Source: Dysgonomonas sp. UBA5412 (GTDB lineage Bacteria > Bacteroidota > Bacteroidia > Bacteroidales > Dysgonomonadaceae). From it: a stretch of DNA of 64,000 bases. The DNA lies in NCBI GenBank assembly GCA_002409595.1, contig DHNQ01000029.1, positions 400,839 through 464,838 on the forward strand. Reading direction: 5' to 3'. A program made the position numbers and the translations under genes. The notes beneath the pieces were generated by a model that was given only the letters and a program-made list of their open reading frames with translations, was not told the origin of the DNA and did not search any database. Of the stretch, positions 13,268-59,641 are shown one piece after another; the stretch's first letter is position 1, and each line of letters begins with the position of its first letter.

Positions 13268-15205
13268 TTAACGTTTTCTTTTTGTACTATTTGTTTTATT
13301 TTTCTCTTTCAGCTGTTGTTGTTGAATGCGTTGAGCTTCTTCGAGACGAGCCATAAAACCTGATTTCTTTTTAGGTTTTGCTTTATTAGCTTCTAGCTTA
13401 GCTAACACTTTGTCTTCGTTAATAATATAACGGAATCCAATAGTCAACAAGATTGTGATCAACAGAGATAGGAAATAATAATATGTAAGCCCTGATGGAT
13501 AATCATTCAATACAAACAAGAACACTAAAGGCATCAGATACATCATCCATTTCATACCCGGCATCTGTTGTTGTCCGGTATTGGTCATCTCCATATTAAA
13601 CTTTGTGTAGATAATGTTAGTCACAGTCATCAGTATACAGAACAAACTAATATGTGTTCCGATTAATGGAATATGATTTTTCCACTCGATGATAGCATCA
13701 TAAGTAGAAAGGTCGGTAGCCCAAAGGAAGCTTTGCTGACGCAACTCTATTGCATTCGGGAAGAATGAGAATAAAGCAATCAGGATAGGCATTTGCAATA
13801 GTAGTGGCACACACCCACTCATCGGGTTAACTCCAGCCTTATTATACAGAGCCATCGTTTCTCGTTGCTTCTCCATAGCCTGTTCTTGCTTAGGATATTT
13901 CGCCCCTATTTCTTCAACCTGAGGTCGTAGCACCCGCATCTTGGCAGATGACATAAAGGACTTGTATGTCAGTGGTGATATTACAAGCTTAACGATTATT
14001 GTCAATAGCAATATAATGATACCCATCGACAGACCTGTTCCTTTCAACAGATTAAAGATTGGTATTACAAAATATTGATTCACCCAGCGGAAAAGTGTCC
14101 AACCCAGTGGAACTAGTTTATCCAAATCAAGTTGATGATTTGCATCACTAATATGATCGTCATACCCTTTCAGCAAGGAGAAAGACATTGGTCCGAGATA
14201 GAAAGTAAATCCGGCTTTGACAGAGCCTGATGTCATATCCATCTGTGCAGGAGCATATATTTTAGCTTCGAATGCTTTTAGATATTCACTATTTTCGTCA
14301 GTAACAAGAGCTTTAGAATCTAACAATGCTGTTTCTATCTTATCATCAGCAATAAGGATCGGCGAAAAAAATTGATTCTTAAATGCAATCCATTTAGCAG
14401 GCTCTTTTACTTCTACTTCTTCATTTTTATCACTGCTTAATTCTTTCACATCTCCTCCGAGATACTTATAGCATAAGTGAGAATAACGTTGTTCGTTCTT
14501 TACACTTTTCTCTTGTCTACGCAACTTCTGCGCCCAATCGAGTTCTATAATATCAGCTTTTTCACGATTTAGCATCGATCCCAACCCTACCAGATTGATA
14601 TCATATTTAAGCATATAATCGTTTTCAGCTAATTTATAGATAAAATCTACGTGTTGATTCGCCGAATAAGAGAATCTCATTATCAAAGAATTATCACTAT
14701 CTGATTTTATTGGAGTAAATATCAGCTCATTCGTGCTGAGAATCTTATTTTCTTTGTTAGTCAACAGAAGCGAAAAATCAGCATCATTATTAAAGAGGTA
14801 TAATGAATCTCCGTCGTAACGAGAATACTCTTTCAATTGCACACTGACCATCTTTCCTCCTTTTGAAGAAAAAACGACCTTCAATTTATTATTCTCAAGA
14901 GTTACAAGTTCTTCAGCTCTCGAATTAATGGTTTGTAGCGAGTCGGTAATCGTAGAAGCCGAGTCTTTTTGTTGAATCGGTGCTGCAAAGAAACTATCAA
15001 CAATATTCTCTTCGTTATTAGTTGTGGAATCTTTCCGATCGGCAAGTTTTTGTTCTCTTTCTAGAGTTTGTACATATTCCAAGGAATCTCTCCTAAACTG
15101 TTCTTTTTGTTTCGCTACCTCTTCGGCAGAAGGTCTGCTCAACAAGGTAAATCCGATGATTACAGCTGCAATAAGCACAAATCCGGTAATCGTATTCTTG
15201 TCCAT
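13268..15205 (-). CDS. yidC: Membrane protein insertase YidC
   Basis: N-terminal TM, large periplasmic domain, 'SSAKMRVLRP', 'GVNPMSGCVPLLLQMPIL', 'PSGLTYYY'. Confidence 0.96.
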   Translation of the reverse strand: MDKNTITGFVLIAAVIIGFTLLSRPSAEEVAKQKEQFRRDSLEYVQTLEREQKLADRKDSTTNNEENIVDSFFAAPIQQKDSASTITDSLQTINSRAEELVTLENNKLKVVFSSKGGKMVSVQLKEYSRYDGDSLYLFNNDADFSLLLTNKENKILSTNELIFTPIKSDSDNSLIMRFSYSANQHVDFIYKLAENDYMLKYDINLVGLGSMLNREKADIIELDWAQKLRRQEKSVKNEQRYSHLCYKYLGGDVKELSSDKNEEVEVKEPAKWIAFKNQFFSPILIADDKIETALLDSKALVTDENSEYLKAFEAKIYAPAQMDMTSGSVKAGFTFYLGPMSFSLLKGYDDHISDANHQLDLDKLVPLGWTLFRWVNQYFVIPIFNLLKGTGLSMGIIILLLTIIVKLVISPLTYKSFMSSAKMRVLRPQVEEIGAKYPKQEQAMEKQRETMALYNKAGVNPMSGCVPLLLQMPILIALFSFFPNAIELRQQSFLWATDLSTYDAIIEWKNHIPLIGTHISLFCILMTVTNIIYTKFNMEMTNTGQQQMPGMKWMMYLMPLVFLFVLNDYPSGLTYYYFLSLLITILLTIGFRYIINEDKVLAKLEANKAKPKKKSGFMARLEEAQRIQQQQLKEKNKTNSTKRKR

Positions 15206-15238
15206 CTATAGTTTAAAATAAATTTATATATTCCTTTA

Positions 15239-16849
15239 TTATTTCTTCTTATTATCTACAACCGCTTTTACAAAACTTAAAAACAAAGGATTGGGAGAAA
15301 CAACCGTACTATTGTATTCGGGATGGAACTGAACTCCTAAATACCATTTTTTACCTTGAAGTTCTACAACCTCAACCAGATCCATATCCGGGTTGATACC
15401 GGTACATTTCATTCCATTCTTCTCAAAATCTTCTCTGTAATCGCCATTAAATTCGAAACGGTGACGATGACGTTCCTCTATCATTTTCTTTCCGTAAGCT
15501 TTATAAACGAGAGAACCTTTTTCCAATTCACATTTATAAGCTCCAAGGCGCATAGTTCCGCCCATATTGGTAACGTTCTTTTGCTCTTCCATAAGGTCTA
15601 TAACCTTAAATGGCGTATGAGGATTCATTTCAGTAGAATTTGCATCTTCTAATCCCAATACATTACGGGCAAATTCGATTACCATACATTGCATACCCAA
15701 ACAAATTCCAAATGTAGGAACATCTTTTTCTCGTGCATATTTCAGAGCAACTAACTTACCTTCCAGCCCTCGCTGGCCAAAACCGGGAGCAATAATTATG
15801 CCATCCATTGAAGATAAAGTTTTTTCGACATTATCTTCGGTCAACTTGTCAGATAAGATAAAGTGAAGATCTAGTTTTCTATCATTATATATAGCTGCCT
15901 GCAACAATGATTCGTTTATAGATTTGTAAGCGTCTGGCAACTCTACGTATTTGCCCACAATAGCTATACGAATAGTTTCTTTTGCGTGTTTTTTCTTGTC
16001 CAAGAAGCCTCTCCAATCTTTCATTTCCGGCTTCTCATCTATTGGCATACCAAGCTTGCGCAACACGATCTCGTCCATATTTTGCTCCTGCATTTTCAAA
16101 GGAACTTCATATATTGTCGATACATCTACTGATTGAACAACGGCATCGACTTCTACATTACAAAATAGCGCTACTTTCTTTAATATATCTTTGTTAAGCG
16201 GATGTTCGGTACGCAACACCAACATATCAGGCTGCACCCCTTCGGATTGAAGCTGTTTCACTGAATGTTGAGTAGGTTTAGTCTTCACCTCTTTGGCTGC
16301 GGCTATATATGGTACATAAGTAAGATGTACACACAGGCAGTTTTTACCCAATTCCCAGCGCAATTGGCGAACGCTCTCGATGAAAGGCAGAGACTCAATA
16401 TCTCCGACCGTTCCACCTATTTCGGTTATAACAAAATCATAATTATATTTTGTACCGAGCATCTTTATATTACGCTTGATTTCGTCGGTAATATGCGGTA
16501 CGATCTGAACTGTTTTTCCAAGATAATCTCCTTTACGTTCTTTATTTATCACATTCTGATAAATACGTCCGGTAGTAATATTATTATCCTTGTGCGTCGG
16601 CTGATTAAGGAAGCGCTCATAGTGTCCTAAATCCAAGTCGGCCTCATGACCATCAACTGTTACATAACATTCTCCATGTTCGTATGGGTTTAATGTTCCC
16701 GGGTCGATATTGATATATGGATCTAGTTTTTGAATAGTTACTTTATACCCTCTTGCTTGTAAAAGCTTACCTAATGATGAGGCGATAATTCCTTTCCCCA
16801 ACGAAGATATAACACCTCCTGTTACAAATATATACTTTGTATTAGCCAC
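15239..16849 (-). CDS. pyrG: CTP synthase
   Basis: 'FVTGGVISSLGKG', 'KTKPTQHSV', 'GICLGMQ', 'QFHPE'. Confidence 0.98.
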   Translation of the reverse strand: MANTKYIFVTGGVISSLGKGIIASSLGKLLQARGYKVTIQKLDPYINIDPGTLNPYEHGECYVTVDGHEADLDLGHYERFLNQPTHKDNNITTGRIYQNVINKERKGDYLGKTVQIVPHITDEIKRNIKMLGTKYNYDFVITEIGGTVGDIESLPFIESVRQLRWELGKNCLCVHLTYVPYIAAAKEVKTKPTQHSVKQLQSEGVQPDMLVLRTEHPLNKDILKKVALFCNVEVDAVVQSVDVSTIYEVPLKMQEQNMDEIVLRKLGMPIDEKPEMKDWRGFLDKKKHAKETIRIAIVGKYVELPDAYKSINESLLQAAIYNDRKLDLHFILSDKLTEDNVEKTLSSMDGIIIAPGFGQRGLEGKLVALKYAREKDVPTFGICLGMQCMVIEFARNVLGLEDANSTEMNPHTPFKVIDLMEEQKNVTNMGGTMRLGAYKCELEKGSLVYKAYGKKMIEERHRHRFEFNGDYREDFEKNGMKCTGINPDMDLVEVVELQGKKWYLGVQFHPEYNSTVVSPNPLFLSFVKAVVDNKKK

Positions 16850-49697: not shown

Positions 49698-52109
49698 TTA
49701 GTTTTCAAAATAGTCATCGTGGTAGTAAGTATTCTTCTTGAGATAGTAGGTCTTATCGCCATAATACCGCGATGTACCATAATACCCTTCCCTGCCTTTG
49801 ACATCATTGAAAACTAACGCCATATTTTCTACTCCATCATATTTCAATTGGCTGATAACACTTTTGAAGAATGCTCTGTTGGTCTTAGCTCGCCTTACAA
49901 CAAAAATGGTCGTATCAGCAATTTCTGATAACACGTATGCATCAGAAACCAGCCCGACCGGACTACAGTCTATTATCACATAGTCATATATCTCTTGCAG
50001 GTGTTCCAATACTTGTCGGGTTTTTGCCGTCTTAATCAACTCACTCGGATTGGGCGGCAAAGTCCCTGCCGGTATTATATCAAAGCCATAGTCAGGATGG
50101 GAAATTGTTATTTCTTCTAGTGTAACCTGACCGATCAGATAATTAGAAATACCCTTCTGTGTATCTAACTGCAAGGTCTTTCCTACTGATGGACGCCTTA
50201 AGTCTAAGTCGACAATAACAACTTTTTTCCCAGTCAACTGATAAACCGACGCAATATTAGTGGCTATAAACGTTTTTCCATCTGCCGGCTCTGTCGAGGT
50301 AACTAATACTGTTATTTTATTTTCGCGTTGAGCCATATATTCTATACGCACCCGCATATTACGAAACGATTCGGCAAAGCTGGATTTCGGATAGTTCTTG
50401 ACCAATACAACTCCGTTTGCTAATTTTTTAGATACATTTTCAATTGTTTCTATAACAGGAAGTCCTGATATTTTTTCACACTCCTCTTTTGTTGTAACAG
50501 AAAAGTTAAGCACTTCTTCTTTTACTACAACAAAGATAAGAGGTATTATCAAACCTATTATGAAGAAATAAACATAGTTCTTTCCTATTTCTCCGCCATT
50601 AACGGCTCCGCCCATCTGACGAGGTTCTTCCCAGATGGAGTTATCCGGTGTGTTAGATGCTTTCTGTATCTTAGCCTCATATTGTCTTTGTGTGAGGTAT
50701 TGATGATACATTTCATTTACGCGAAATTCTCGTTGAAATTTAATTAGATCACGCTCTTGAGGAGGTAAATTCTCAATCTTTAATTCGAGAACTTTGTATT
50801 TTCGAATCAGATTGTCTTTCTGATTCTGCAAATTGATCTGAAGCACCTGAACTTCTGTCAATATCTTTTTTCTTAAATCGTTAAGCTGATCAACAGTTTT
50901 ATTATATACCGGATTTTTAGCACCTAGATTGCGAGATCTCTCTAAGAGTTCATTATAACTTTTGATATAATCGCTCAGCACTCTATTATCTATATTTAAG
51001 CTAATGGGGTCTAACAGATCTTCACTACCCATTATGGTTTGCTTCATCTTTTCGGTTAACAGCAAAATGGATCGTTCCTTGATCGACAACGCATCTTTTT
51101 CTCTGTTGGCGCTATCTAATTCTATCCTCAACGAGTTTGAAGAAATATCATAAACTCCCGTTTCTTTTTGAAAATCTTCGAGTTTTAGTCGAGAATAATC
51201 CAAGGAATCGTTTATAAGTTTTAGCTGATTGTCCAAAAATTCTATTGTAAGTTCGGCTTGTTCATTTTTTAACGAAAGACTATATTCCTGAAACTCTTTT
51301 AATAATGTATTCATATAGTCTACATCTCTCGCAGGATTTGTTCCGTTCATAGATATGATCAGAATTGTAGAATTTTCTCCTTGAGGTCTCGAAGCTACTC
51401 TCCCATTATACATACCGATCAATTGATCATCTGATAGGAATCTGAAACTAATACTAGCCAGATCAGGTTTAAAAGCGTTTACACCTGAAACAAATGCTGA
51501 TGTTTTGTGTAGCTTTATTTTGAAAAGGCTACATTCTACCTCTTCTTCGTATGAGGCTATGATTGAAACTTTATCTTCTTTATCAGGATTTTCTTTATAA
51601 CTTATTTCACATTTATTGTCATCAATATATGTAAGGTCATAAGCATAATTATATGCTCCGGGCTGAATATCCAATACTTCGACCTGAATGGGAGTGTCTG
51701 TATAAAAATTAATTGTCTTGAAACGGGTATCTTTGAAATAATCGACTCTCATACGAGGAGGCAGTTTGCCTACTGTCCGTTTAGTTAGACCGTATGATTC
51801 TAATACAATTTGCTGATTCTCTGTATTACGTAGCAAGCTGGCTGTAGGAACTGCTCCTGCAACAACGCTAGCTGCATTTTTGTCTTCCATAATCATCATG
51901 GCCTGAACATAAAATACAGGAACCCACGATTTATTTTTTATATAGGCATATGCAAGAAACAGACCTATTGATATGACGAAGAGATACCAATATTTCAAGA
52001 TACGGTAAAACCAAAGAACAAAATCAAAAGAGATTGTCGTTTTAGATTTTACTTCCTCAAAATAAGGATCAAAGTCTATCGGTTTTTTATTATTTAAGTT
52101 AGTTTCCAT
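49698..52109 (-). CDS. wzc: Polysaccharide co-polymerase / BY tyrosine kinase (Wzc)
   Basis: Two TMs flanking a coiled-coil periplasmic region; 'ESFRNMR', 'PADGKT', 'DLDLRRP', 'IIDCSP'; Tyr-rich tail. Confidence 0.92.
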   Translation of the reverse strand: METNLNNKKPIDFDPYFEEVKSKTTISFDFVLWFYRILKYWYLFVISIGLFLAYAYIKNKSWVPVFYVQAMMIMEDKNAASVVAGAVPTASLLRNTENQQIVLESYGLTKRTVGKLPPRMRVDYFKDTRFKTINFYTDTPIQVEVLDIQPGAYNYAYDLTYIDDNKCEISYKENPDKEDKVSIIASYEEEVECSLFKIKLHKTSAFVSGVNAFKPDLASISFRFLSDDQLIGMYNGRVASRPQGENSTILIISMNGTNPARDVDYMNTLLKEFQEYSLSLKNEQAELTIEFLDNQLKLINDSLDYSRLKLEDFQKETGVYDISSNSLRIELDSANREKDALSIKERSILLLTEKMKQTIMGSEDLLDPISLNIDNRVLSDYIKSYNELLERSRNLGAKNPVYNKTVDQLNDLRKKILTEVQVLQINLQNQKDNLIRKYKVLELKIENLPPQERDLIKFQREFRVNEMYHQYLTQRQYEAKIQKASNTPDNSIWEEPRQMGGAVNGGEIGKNYVYFFIIGLIIPLIFVVVKEEVLNFSVTTKEECEKISGLPVIETIENVSKKLANGVVLVKNYPKSSFAESFRNMRVRIEYMAQRENKITVLVTSTEPADGKTFIATNIASVYQLTGKKVVIVDLDLRRPSVGKTLQLDTQKGISNYLIGQVTLEEITISHPDYGFDIIPAGTLPPNPSELIKTAKTRQVLEHLQEIYDYVIIDCSPVGLVSDAYVLSEIADTTIFVVRRAKTNRAFFKSVISQLKYDGVENMALVFNDVKGREGYYGTSRYYGDKTYYLKKNTYYHDDYFEN

Positions 52110-53706: not shown

Positions 53707-54273
53707 TTAGTTTCTTTTTCCTTCTACGGATTTAACTCTATAACGGCAATTAACTCTTCCTTTGATAAGGTTATTAAGCTTACTTTTGATTAGTTGTTTG
53801 CGTATACCTGAGATTTTATCTATAAAAAGAATACCTTCTATGTGGTCGTATTCATGCTGAATGCAACGGGCAAAGAATGAATCGTACTCCTCATCGTGAG
53901 AATTAAAATTTTCGTCAAGATACTGTATTCGTATTTTCGCCTCACGTTCCACAGCCTCATTGATACCCGGCAGGCTAAGACATCCCTCGTCCATCTTCAC
54001 CACGTCTCCGGTACGCTCTACAATTTGAGGATTGATAAATACTTTCTTAAAGCCCGCGTATTTAGGTTCATCTTCTGCCAGCGGCTCCAAGTCTATAACA
54101 AACAGACGAATATCTAAACCTATCTGAGGTGCAGCCAAGCCAATGCCATCAGCATTATACATGGTTTCGAACATATTTTCGATAAGCTGTTTTAAATTGG
54201 GATAATCGGCTGGAATATCTTGTGCTACTTTTCGCAACACCGGTTGTCCATACAAGTATATTGGTAAAATCAT
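53707..54273 (-). CDS. def: Peptide deformylase (cytoplasmic, canonical)
   Basis: [21 protein letters not shown]. Confidence 0.97.
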
Positions 54274-56850: not shown

Positions 56851-57462
56851 CTATTCACTCAACCTGTCGATAAACAAAATTCCTTGAAGGTGGTCAAATT
56901 CGTGCTGAAAGATAATACCGGTAAAGTCACCACCGCGCGCACCACCCGACAATCGTTCTTTGATAAGCTCTCCCCGTTCGTTATAATACTCTACATCCAC
57001 CCAAGCATAACGCTTAGTAGTACCCGACATATCGGGAATGGACAAACAGCCATCGCCTTCGAAGTTTATTATCTCTTCCGAGTGGTTTACAATACGAGGA
57101 TTTATCGCTGCTTCAACATTTCTTTCCGGTTTATCCATACGCATAAAAAGAAATAAATTTCGGCTGACACCAACTTGTGGTGCTGCAAGCCCTACTCCAA
57201 GTTCTTCAGCCAACGTCAATTTCAAACGTTGAATAAAATGTTGAAAATCTTTATCTCTAACAATATCTTGAGGGTTCGCAAAATCTATACTCTTTTGGCG
57301 AAGAAGCAAAGAGTCTTCCTTATTAGTCGTCAGCAAGACCCTAAAAGGAGTATTTGCATCCGAATCTACAATTATTTTTCTTTCTGTATCTGTCATATAT
57401 TTAATAGAATTACATGCCGGCAATACAAAGCAAACGGCTAATATGAATAATATTTTTTTCAC
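56851..57462 (-). CDS. def: Second peptide deformylase with a predicted lipoprotein signal peptide
   Basis: GTG at 57462 gives (M)KKILFILAVCFVLPA|C; motifs GVGLAAPQVG, EG-DGCLS and QHEFDH. Confidence 0.85.
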   Translation of the reverse strand: MKKILFILAVCFVLPACNSIKYMTDTERKIIVDSDANTPFRVLLTTNKEDSLLLRQKSIDFANPQDIVRDKDFQHFIQRLKLTLAEELGVGLAAPQVGVSRNLFLFMRMDKPERNVEAAINPRIVNHSEEIINFEGDGCLSIPDMSGTTKRYAWVDVEYYNERGELIKERLSGGARGGDFTGIIFQHEFDHLQGILFIDRLSE

Positions 57463-57628
57463 CTTGTTTTCTGTATTAATATTCTGCAAAGATAAGAAAA
57501 AAGCAAATTATCTTTGGTTTATAAAAGAGTATAGATACATAGCTAAATACAAAATATTAATCAATATGATCAAAGGTGTGACAAATGTTCCATTTTTGCG
57601 ACATATTAAATAAAGCTAACTCCGCCGG

Positions 57629-58117
57629 ATGAAACAAGAGGTAAAAAGAGATGAATTGTTTTTAGAAATGATACACCAGAATGAGGGTATTATTTATAAA
57701 GTCGTTTCTTTTTATGCTGATGCAGAACACCCCATTGGAGATTTATATCAGGAAGTGGTCTTGAACCTTTGGAAATCATATCCTTCATTCAGAGGAGAAA
57801 GCAAATATTCTACATGGATATATCGCATTGCATTAAACACATGTGTATCGTTCTATCGCCGCAATAAAAAAAATGTAACGTATGTGGATATTTCTGTCGA
57901 CATGCCGGAAATAGAAGACAGCAGTGAAGAAATTCAGGAACTTTACAAACTGATCAATTGCTTAGGCAAAATAGAGCGCGCCTTAGTATTACTTTATTTA
58001 GACGACAAGTCGTATAAAGAAATAGCTGAGATAACAGGACTATCGGTAACTAATGTGGCTACAAAGCTGAGCCGGATAAAAGAAAAGTTAAGACTAATGT
58101 CTAACGGACAAAACTAA
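57629..58117 (+). CDS. ECF sigma factor
   Basis: 'DLYQEVVLNLW', 'STWIYRIALNTC', region 4 'SYKEIAEITGLSVTNVATKLSRIK'. Confidence 0.95.
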   Translation: MKQEVKRDELFLEMIHQNEGIIYKVVSFYADAEHPIGDLYQEVVLNLWKSYPSFRGESKYSTWIYRIALNTCVSFYRRNKKNVTYVDISVDMPEIEDSSEEIQELYKLINCLGKIERALVLLYLDDKSYKEIAEITGLSVTNVATKLSRIKEKLRLMSNGQN

Positions 58118-58122
58118 TAGTT

Positions 58123-58701
58123 ATGGATTTAGATAATATAAAGAAAAAATGGCAGGAGACAGAGATAAAGCCGAATCTTGAAACAGAAAAGATTTGCGCC
58201 ATGCTGTCGAACAAAGGATACAGTGCCTTCAACAGTTTACTCCGATACGAAAAGATGGGAATGATAGCGATGGTAGCCTGTTTGGGCTTAGGCTATTTGA
58301 TATTCTCAAGATACCCGTTGATAGTCATTATATATTGCACTTCTGCAACATTCGGTTTTTTCTGGCAATTGTATAAATGGAAAAAACTAAAAAATACAAA
58401 TATTGCCGAAATGACAATCATGGAAGTATCTACCTTATTTTATTGGTATAGGAAAGTGATATACAAAGAGTTTTTCTTAGGAGTAGTATGGTTTATATTA
58501 TTTTTTATCATACTCGGATATTTGGAAATTACACATGACCCTTCATTCAGAAGCCTTCGCATCACAATATTTATTGCCGGAGCCTTTATTGGTTTAATAG
58601 GCGCAATTGTTACTTATAAATTAATGTATTGGAACAATATAAAAAAGCTCGCTACGGCAATAAAAGAAGTAGAGGAATTTGAAGAAGAAAATCATAAATA
58701 A
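58123..58701 (+). CDS. Four-TM membrane protein, putative anti-sigma factor
   Basis: 'MDLDNIKKKW' N-terminus, four hydrophobic segments, 5 nt after the sigma gene. Confidence 0.65.
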   Translation: MDLDNIKKKWQETEIKPNLETEKICAMLSNKGYSAFNSLLRYEKMGMIAMVACLGLGYLIFSRYPLIVIIYCTSATFGFFWQLYKWKKLKNTNIAEMTIMEVSTLFYWYRKVIYKEFFLGVVWFILFFIILGYLEITHDPSFRSLRITIFIAGAFIGLIGAIVTYKLMYWNNIKKLATAIKEVEEFEEENHK

Positions 58702-58717
58702 CTTAATATCACAAACG

Positions 58718-59641
58718 ATGAGAACAAACAAGTTTATTCTTTCCTTATTTACATTATTATTAGTAATAACTCAAATCTCAATTGCACAGAATTCAGATAA
58801 ATATACAGGATCTCTACTTTGGAAGATATCAGGAAACAACCTGAACCAACCTTCTTATATACTAGGAACACACCATCTGGCGCATGTCAGTTTTGTAGAT
58901 AGTATTGCAGGATTGAAAAAAACGCTTAATGATGTTGATCAGATTGTAGGCGAATTAGTATTGGACGATATGCCTGCTTTGCAAACACAAATGCAACAAG
59001 CCGCATTGATGCCCAAAGGAGAAACTTATGCCGACCTGCTTACTAAGGATGAACTTCAAACCTTAGACGCGGGACTAAAAAGTCTTTTCACCGTCGGGCT
59101 CGAACAATTTGGACAATTAAAACCGGGAATGCTATCCTCTCTATATACTGTAACAATGTATGCTAAACAGCATCCTGAATTCAACCCGATGTCTCACGAA
59201 GCAATAGATGCCTATGTGCAACGGATAGGTAAAGAAAATGGCAAAAGCATTCTTGGACTTGAAACAATAGACGACCAGATATATGCACTATTTAATGCAG
59301 AGCCATTAAAGGATCAGGCCAAATCTCTAGTTTGTTTGACACAGAACATTAATACGATAGAAAAACTGATGGATAAATTGAATGAATATTACAAAACCGG
59401 CAATCTGGCAGAGATGTATAATCTGTCTTTCAATAATCCAGAAGACCCTTGTCCAACCTCAGCTATTGCAAAAAGTGCTTTATCAACAGACAGAAACAAT
59501 AAATGGTTAGAAAAACTACCGGCAATTATGAACGAAAAATCAAATCTGATAGCAGTAGGAGCTTTACATCTTGTCGGAGAAGACGGATTACTTATCCAAT
59601 TATCCAACATGGGCTATACAGTGGAAGCTGTAAAAGAATAA
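58718..59641 (+). CDS. TraB/GumN (Tiki-like) exported metalloprotein
   Basis: Signal peptide; 'SLLWKISG', 'YILGTHH', 'GLET', 'RNNKW', 'AVGALHL'. Likely start ATG 58718. Confidence 0.9.
   Translation: MRTNKFILSLFTLLLVITQISIAQNSDKYTGSLLWKISGNNLNQPSYILGTHHLAHVSFVDSIAGLKKTLNDVDQIVGELVLDDMPALQTQMQQAALMPKGETYADLLTKDELQTLDAGLKSLFTVGLEQFGQLKPGMLSSLYTVTMYAKQHPEFNPMSHEAIDAYVQRIGKENGKSILGLETIDDQIYALFNAEPLKDQAKSLVCLTQNINTIEKLMDKLNEYYKTGNLAEMYNLSFNNPEDPCPTSAIAKSALSTDRNNKWLEKLPAIMNEKSNLIAVGALHLVGEDGLLIQLSNMGYTVEAVKE

Follow-up and report, generated by a model that had tools for sequence, protein, structure and literature searches.

Peptide deformylase (PDF) is the textbook co-translational enzyme of the bacterial cytoplasm, where it docks on the ribosome, and it is also an antibiotic target. 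To our knowledge it is otherwise known only from the cytoplasm and from organelles. Here we describe a second PDF gene of Dysgonomonas sp. UBA5412 (GenBank assembly GCA_002409595.1, contig DHNQ01000029.1, positions 400,839 to 464,838 of the forward strand; this whole 64,000-nucleotide stretch is called the window below, and positions are counted within it). Its product begins with a lipoprotein-type export signal, and sequence comparison strongly supports its being an exported copy of the normally cytoplasmic enzyme, as the sequence-only reading of the window had proposed. The gene appears to represent a large, seemingly undescribed clade, and thus a known enzyme in an unexpected compartment. 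No description of exported, periplasmic, secreted or lipoprotein PDFs was found in the full-text literature, whose coverage is incomplete, so that an earlier mention is possible elsewhere.

Four kinds of described protein offer the closest comparisons. Type 1B Def enzymes (E. coli Def, T. maritima 1LME and the resident def of the same genome) share with the exported PDF the Pfam family, the three sequence motifs, the fold and a hydrophobic S1' pocket. Compared with them, the exported PDF has an additional signal peptide, lipobox cysteine and N-terminal helix, begins its motif 2 with Asp and lacks the ribosome-binding α-3 helix; it sits in a clade of its own, set off by a long branch, and shares only 32% identity with the resident def. 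The PDFs of phages (Vibrio phage Vp16; cyanophage S-SSM7, 3UWA) have in common with it a short C-terminus that ends near the eta-3 turn and a type 1B-like core, but they are made without a signal peptide and work in the cytoplasm of the host, whereas the exported PDF is encoded on the chromosome, in a syntenic context, and has an export signal. Close to one in two genomes of bacteria hold more than one PDF gene, often on mobile elements (Lamberioux et al., 2025, PMC12690207). Accessory enzymes of this kind, such as Def2 of Vibrio cholerae and PDFs borne on integrons or plasmids, likewise stand beside a housekeeping PDF, but they are cytoplasmic, often mobile and linked to actinonin tolerance; in the text of that study the terms 'lipoprotein' and 'Bacteroid*' are absent, and 'signal peptide' and 'periplasm' occur once each, in other contexts. 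Finally, the N-terminus resembles those of periplasm-facing Bacteroidota lipoproteins, which lack the surface-export signal LES (PMC5080379), in its Sec-type signal, its Cys at +1 and the absence of K-(D/E)2, and differs from them in an atypical Pro at -2.

The gene occupies 56851..57462 on the minus strand, stop codon included, and encodes 203 residues from a GTG start, as delimited by the list of open reading frames (ORFs), the PF01327 match, gene calls and an AlphaFold2 model. The open frame itself spans 56851..57489; initiation at the GTG at 57462 yields the 203-residue product, and public gene calls on identical contigs give the identical protein. Read from the sequence, it starts (M)KKILFILAVCFVLPA-C-NSIKYMTDTE, the fuller leader being (M)KKILFILAVCFVLPA-C-NSIKYMTDTERK. 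The protein matches PF01327 with E=1.3e-34 and 119.5 bits (cut-off 22.8) and the equivalog model TIGR00079 with 109.1 bits, above its cut-off of 103.95. A canonical housekeeping def, already recognized in the sequence-only reading, is present at 53707..54273 on the minus strand, 3' of ruvX; it encodes 188 residues with a basic C-terminal helix and no signal, and scores 182.5 bits against PF01327 and 183.6 bits against NF001159. These two are exactly the PF01327 genes found in the assembly (3.13 Mb, 99.9% complete).

Residues 1-16 of the exported PDF (MKKILFILAVCFVLPA; 57415..57462, minus strand) have the makeup of a signal peptide, with a KK n-region and a hydrophobic core of 13 residues, and they are followed by Cys17 (codon TGT, 57412..57414, minus strand), the putative lipid-modified +1 Cys of a lipobox L-P-A-C, so that the mature boundary is read as MKKILFILAVCFVLPA|C. 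The basic N-region, hydrophobic core and lipobox-like Cys had been pointed out from this one sequence, and all are conserved in orthologues. A helix is predicted at residues 2-20 in the AlphaFold2 model. Of 150 clade sequences, 100 have a Cys aligned with Cys17, and none of 21 canonical defs does. Among database proteins the 120 closest, which are Dysgonomonas-named or come from 'Prevotella' metagenome-assembled genomes (MAGs), carry a basic, hydrophobic leader ending [L/F/M/Y]-[S/A]-[A/S]-C or are 180-residue forms that begin at the Met of the ATG at 57396.

The leader is also found at greater distance. In a sample of 201 Bacteroidales genomes from 167 genera, about 32 hold a second PDF copy whose match reaches the N-terminal extension, which bears out the earlier surmise that similar proteins might exist in other Bacteroidales; the best 30 of these second-copy loci, in genomes of different families, were examined for signals, and orthologues do keep them, 27 having a signal and Cys, two a signal without Cys and one no signal. 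A profile search of 1.84 billion cluster representatives (clusters at 50% identity) gave 98 matches at E<=1e-30. Among the best 150 representatives, which were classified, 73 have lipobox-type signals and 32 other signal peptides, 15 have an N-terminal extension but no detectable hydrophobic signal (several of them from visibly truncated annotated starts), and the remaining 30 comprise 10 fragments and about 20 PDFs that look canonical or are N-truncated. Of the full-length relatives, drawn from 30 genomes of Bacteroidales, about 40 named ones and more than 100 clusters at 50% identity, about 95% have a signal of the lipobox or signal-peptidase-I type. Lipoproteins were recognized by a basic n-region, an uncharged h-region, a lipobox [LVI][ASTVI][GAS]C and a Cys at 15-35 (PROSITE PS00013). 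By this measure 95 of 141 sequences fit the strict lipobox and 27 a relaxed one, and most of the others have signals of the signal peptidase I (SPI) type. In several lineages (D. capnocytophagoides, D. macrotermitis, Fermentimonas, Proteiniphilum and Lentimicrobium) the lipobox is replaced by an SPI-type site, ...MA|Q[F/L]T..E, directly before the first conserved helix. Because the two types of site are exchanged between lineages, the feature that is conserved is export and not lipidation.

The other end of the protein also departs from the housekeeping enzyme. Its C-terminus (LQGILFIDRLSE; 56854..56889, minus strand) extends only 12 residues past HExxH in the alignment and stops just beyond the FIDR turn, so that the type 1B α-3 helix is missing. 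Most clade members have 10-13 residues after HExxH, as opposed to a basic helix about 40 residues long in every one of 21 canonical Bacteroidales defs. E. coli PDF binds the ribosome through its C-terminal α-3 helix; phage PDFs without this helix can be active (PMC5591237). With this helix missing and the N-terminal signal conserved in the clade, the exported PDF is, as judged from its sequence, outside the ribosome-associated housekeeping type.

Phylogenetic analysis placed 41 exported rows apart from 22 canonical rows with a Shimodaira-Hasegawa-like approximate likelihood ratio test (SH-aLRT) value of 99 and a branch length of 1.42. By this tree the exported clade is monophyletic, and its separation on a long branch identifies it as an old paralogous lineage, not a recent duplicate. 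The next-best matches of the catalytic core beyond the clade are PDFs of Cyanobacteria and Saccharibacteria (38-44% identity; loci L121-L158), which are closer than the resident Bacteroidales def (only 32-35%); on these grounds the clade may have originated outside the canonical Bacteroidota def lineage. Another accessory PDF type occurs in Bacteroidota (L161, L165, L172 and L173); it has the motif 2 sequence WEGCLSIPG and an acidic tail of 29 residues and lacks a signal peptide. Together with the exported clade there are thus at least two distinct accessory PDF kinds in the phylum.

The catalytic apparatus is retained in full. Motif 1, G-V-G-L-A-A-P-Q (residues 89-96; 57175..57198, minus strand), has its Gly, Gly and Gln invariant in 150 clade sequences; motif 2, D-G-C-L-S (residues 137-141; 57040..57054, minus strand), contains the metal-ligand Cys139 and is invariant at G-C-L-S; and motif 3, H-E-F-D-H (residues 187-191; 56890..56904, minus strand), supplies two metal-ligand His and the catalytic Glu and is invariant at H, E, D and H in the same 150. 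In E. coli numbering, for which the E. coli PDF sequence served as a reference for residue numbers only, the positions invariant in 150 of 150 sequences are G43, G45, Q50, C90, L91, H132, E133 and H136. The Cys and HEXXH ligands and the replacement of EGCLS by DGCLS had been noted beforehand, and the ligands now prove constant across the clade. The S1' pocket positions remain hydrophobic (V, F/Y, V/I, I/V). Since neither the metal ligands nor the catalytic Glu or oxyanion Gln vary, and since the S1' pocket has the hydrophobic character that Met would call for, the residue pattern is, at the level of sequence, the signature of a working deformylase with the classical Met substrate. The predicted structure agrees. 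An AlphaFold2 model built on a 63-sequence alignment reached a predicted local distance difference test (pLDDT) value of 92 and a predicted template modelling score (pTM) of 0.86, and its top 50 PDB matches in Foldseek are all PDFs. The best is T. maritima PDF (1LME), with a template modelling (TM) score of 0.89-0.94 on the target and a root-mean-square deviation of 1.7 Å; PDFs of Acinetobacter, Synechococcus and cyanophage S-SSM7 (3UWA, TM 0.91) are next. By sequence, the closest solved structure matches at E=3e-20 only, and none is nearer.

Tandem forms also occur in the clade. L007 (G066:C9), L008 (G198:C93) and P0124 are proteins of 382-389 residues in which two PDF domains follow one lipoprotein signal; the first domain is degenerate (motif 2 ETCAT and motif 3 HAITH in L007, motif 3 HEMAH in L008), the second is intact, and the first domains form a long-branch pair of their own in the tree.

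Loss of deformylase activity was considered in this connection, with the protein acting instead as a binder or decoy for formyl-peptides or for PDF inhibitors (actinonin), or as an amidase for another N-acyl substrate. Motif 2 begins with Asp instead of Glu, as it does in 120 of 120 close relatives and 15 of 30 distant members (the others and canonical defs have Glu), the position of E. coli Arg97 is Ser in 112 of 120 close relatives, and the degenerate first domain of L007, with HAITH, indicates that non-catalytic PDF domains do arise in the clade. Against these stand the ligands, catalytic Glu and oxyanion Gln, invariant in 150 sequences, together with the hydrophobic S1' pocket, and we regard a non-PDF function as very improbable.

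A further difference between the exported and canonical proteins concerns two cysteines. At window-protein positions 133 and 202 (alignment columns 307 and 385) Cys is present in 98 and 70 of 150 clade sequences, respectively; 64 of the 70 cases have both, and none of 21 canonical defs has either one, although a phylogeny-aware test recognizes only two independent contrasts. The pair could form a clade-specific disulfide, as expected of a periplasmic protein. The window protein has neither, residue 133 being N and residue 202 S.

Export through Sec is expected from the sequence, because the n-region has KK without a twin arginine. The Bacteroidota surface-export signal (LES) is C-X-K-(D/E)2 (PMC5080379, Lauber et al., 2016). 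Neither this motif nor a similar acidic one is present at +2 to +6 of the window protein, which reads C-N-S-I-K-Y, and 96 of 122 clade lipoboxes likewise have no acidic residue at +2 to +6. Our best guess for the window protein is therefore a periplasm-facing anchor, the location that the non-acidic residues after the Cys had suggested from the start. The tether from Cys17 to the folded domain is only about six residues long in the window protein and its close relatives. Other members differ: L022, L024, L025 and L031 bear surface-export motifs (CKKDD, CQKDD, CSKED and CAKEE) with long linkers, and by virtue of these exact motifs and linkers part of the family may be surface-exposed.

Taken together, these features point to a deformylase that probably works post-translationally outside the cytoplasm, and we hold this general mechanism with good though not high confidence. 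In the scheme we propose, for which we infer actual export, lipidation, metal, substrate and physiological role from the sequence, a catalytically competent PDF would be exported through Sec by its N-terminal signal peptide, and Cys17 would probably be lipid-modified, so as to hold the enzyme on its short tether of about six residues at the periplasm-facing membrane surface. As the ribosome-docking C-terminal helix is absent, it would not be a co-translational enzyme; without that helix it would act post-translationally on N-formyl-methionyl (fMet) N-termini outside the cytoplasm.

Several observations weigh against this interpretation. The lipobox L-P-A-C of the window protein fails strict PS00013 solely through its Pro at -2, a feature flagged as atypical at the outset, and processing by LspA is uncertain owing to this residue. 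Pro at -2 is found in 2 of 122 lipoboxes, both of them the window protein itself (L003 and P0001), and is species-specific; orthologues mostly have Ser, Tyr or Phe there. If LspA refuses Pro at -2, signal peptidase I could cut the protein instead, or the signal could stay on as an anchor; the catalytic domain would be outside in either case. The classical PDF metal is Fe(II), which is oxygen-labile, yet the clade occurs in aerobic Chitinophagales, which bears on the metal used and on how active the enzyme may be in an oxidising periplasm. A partner in the form of an exported methionine aminopeptidase was not found, the three M24 genes of the genome itself all being without signal peptide. No neighbour family recurs beyond close relatives among 20 distant members (about 14 kb around each; three flanking ORFs per side compared all-against-all by BLAST, and two per side, 80 in total, searched against Pfam), and the surroundings gave no functional clue. 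The fusion of PDF to Peptidase_M1 described below is a single MAG protein. Finally, the close Dysgonomonas-type subclade conserves Met23, the residue encoded by the internal ATG (57396), to at least 90%.

The last point bears on whether the leader is translated at all. The protein could be a cytoplasmic accessory PDF that starts at ATG 57396 and serves as a backup or inhibitor-tolerant enzyme, like V. cholerae Def2. About a third of database entries are annotated in this way, from the internal Met at about 180 residues; accessory PDFs are common (PMC12690207), and phage PDFs without a C-terminal helix work in vivo (PMC5591237). Met23 is also the first residue of a clade-specific N-terminal helix and cap motif (M23-T-D-T-E...; 57367..57396, minus strand, from model and alignment), which is [M/F]-[T/S]-x-x-E or, in full across the clade, [M/F/L/V/W]-[T/S]-x-x-[E/D/Q]. 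DSSP assigns a helix to residues 25-32 of the model, and the cap motif is absent from canonical defs. At residue 23 the Dysgonomonas-type subclade has Met, whereas most distant members have Phe; the position is therefore a conserved hydrophobic one and not a conserved start codon, and in the SPI-type variants cleavage falls right before the cap motif.

The DNA upstream of the ATG argues in the same direction. The 22 upstream codons keep encoding a signal peptide at the protein level even where the DNA is very divergent, and genomes in which 180 residues are annotated are no exception. L079, L081 and L085 (Dysgonomonas sp. Marseille-P4677, D. gadei and D. hofstadii) are annotated as 180-181 residues from the internal ATG, and in all three an in-frame signal with a GTG start lies 5' of the annotated ATG, so that these 180-residue entries are start-site miscalls. 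A putative Bacteroidota-type -7 promoter element, TATCTTTG (57487..57494, minus strand), lies 32 nucleotides upstream of the GTG. TAnnTTTG is reportedly the Bacteroidota -7 consensus, said to have been described by Bayley and colleagues in 2000. In the window and in six Dysgonomonas-type orthologues it precedes the start by 31-36 nucleotides; three more have it at -21, -27 and -47, and in one orthologue only does it occur between the start and the internal ATG. The upstream in-frame TTG at 57489 was rejected as a start, being located inside the conserved -7 box. The gene is also not on a mobile element by its chromosomal context, no dedicated plasmid or phage search having been run. We accordingly give a cytoplasmic accessory enzyme very little credence. 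The earlier caveat about ATG 57396 stands insofar as the codon is real and encodes M23; as a conserved start it does not hold, with Phe in most distant members and the -7 box upstream of the GTG. A minor cytoplasmic isoform from Met23 may exist in Dysgonomonas, but nothing points to one.

For the exported deformylase, the next question is what it would act on. Lysed neighbouring cells release fMet-peptides, and periplasmic amino- and dipeptidyl-peptidases need a free α-amino group. The enzyme would take the formyl block off periplasmic fMet-peptides, whether imported or shed from the cell's own envelope, and the unblocked peptides would then be degraded by exopeptidases that require a free α-amino group. 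This requirement leads us to favour unblocking for catabolism; scavenging of fMet-peptides is the leading candidate for the role, which we put forward tentatively from the sequence data. Formylated substrates may also arise within the cell that makes the enzyme. The signal recognition particle (SRP) shields nascent chains with signal sequences from PDF, fMet is kept on N-out membrane proteins, and signal peptides can still bear their formyl group after release (PMC5454389); formylated substrates plausibly exist outside the cytoplasm.

The same observations suit an envelope housekeeping enzyme, whose substrates would be the cell's own N-out inner-membrane proteins with retained fMet and cleaved signal peptides that got past the ribosomal PDF, and not external peptides. 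The mechanism would be as proposed above and only the physiological role would differ. SRP protection and the fMet kept by N-out proteins (PMC5454389) would provide the need, the tether of about six residues would keep the active site at the membrane surface, and the gene is chromosomal, syntenic in Dysgonomonas and not accessory-looking. The distribution speaks against it: of the Bacteroidales genomes sampled, about 16% have the exported type, and of other Bacteroidota about 2% (in the phylum-wide sample, about 8 of 401 genomes), so that it does not look like a general envelope requirement. Forms with linkers of 20-40 residues and surface-export motifs, or soluble periplasmic forms, would also be ill-suited to membrane-embedded substrates. 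Processing of own-envelope N-termini comes next after peptide unblocking, and we consider it rather unlikely.

Carriers of the exported type include D. gadei, D. hofstadii, D. capnocytophagoides and D. macrotermitis among named Dysgonomonas, further Paludibacter, Fermentimonas, Proteiniphilum, Massilibacteroides, an Odoribacteraceae MAG and Lentimicrobium, and beyond Bacteroidales, Saprospiraceae and the Chitinophagales Taibaiella and Edaphocola (a soil MAG). This range bears on a role in immune masking, in which the enzyme would destroy released formyl-peptide agonists of animal formyl-peptide receptors. Formyl peptides that derive from signal peptides and from membrane proteins act as agonists of these receptors (PMC5454389 and references therein), and record titles place Dysgonomonas in insect and human guts, for example D. 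macrotermitis and a MAG from a Hadza gut. The clade is also found in Saprospiraceae, Taibaiella, Edaphocola from soil, Paludibacter, biofilm Lentimicrobium and digester Fermentimonas and Proteiniphilum, and the window protein has no surface-export motif and probably faces the periplasm. Because the clade mixes gut, digester, sludge and soil organisms, masking is unlikely as a general role and the least general of those proposed, and our expectation of it is very low; scavenging or envelope N-terminus processing fits the distribution better. Detoxification of formylated antimicrobial peptides is likewise quite improbable, and that the enzyme serves some other role is unlikely, though less so than detoxification.

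The gene order around the exported PDF is conserved in Dysgonomonas: a divergent unit comprising an extracytoplasmic function (ECF) sigma factor, a 192-residue membrane protein and a TraB/GumN protein, then PDF, ilvE, lptB, ruvX and def. In the window the divergent unit spans 57629..59641 on the plus strand and is next to the exported PDF in Dysgonomonas only. It consists of the ECF sigma-70 factor (57629-58117), the 192-residue membrane protein, an anti-sigma candidate (58123-58701), and the TraB/GumN-family protein, which has a signal peptide (58679-59641), all on the plus strand. The PDF context is chromosomal and syntenic within the genus.

Fusions within the clade join PDF to Peptidase_M1 (821 residues), an AXE1 esterase (640 residues, in a cluster of 16 members) and Peptidase_M15. 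Further partners are a thioredoxin-like or AhpC-TSA domain, a metallo-beta-lactamase fold, DUF3089, DUF6250 and, on the N-terminal side, DUF1684. The proteins are P0152, P0219, P0204, P0160, P0176, P0196, P0181 and P0165, of which the AXE1 fusion alone was checked against artefact. They lend weak support to an envelope hydrolase setting.

Elsewhere in the window, at 49698..52109, lies a gene for a Wzc-like tyrosine kinase of 803 residues, a length shared by L033. In L034, a near-identical contig from another sample, it is called at 13354..15766 as two products of 386 and 387 residues, which suggests a frameshift, a stop variant or an assembly error.

For the phylum as a whole, we judge the chances evenly balanced that Bacteroidota have a dedicated extracytoplasmic deformylation step, mostly lipid-anchored, in some cases soluble and periplasmic and in some bearing a surface-export motif, and represented by at least about 100 clusters at 50% identity. 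Public records hide the signal peptide where the internal ATG is annotated although the true start is GTG. If the reading is correct, deformylation would also take place in the cell envelope, where formylated N-termini that escape the ribosomal PDF end up, and an N-terminal processing enzyme thought to work only at the ribosome would have a previously unrecognized compartment. It would probably serve to unblock fMet-peptides so that periplasmic exopeptidases can use them, a new step in the handling of N-blocked peptides by peptide-degrading Bacteroidota, with side effects on exposed formyl-peptide signals. In gut communities it could also shift the pool of formyl-peptide immune agonists, and it would present PDF inhibitors with a second, periplasmic target or sink.

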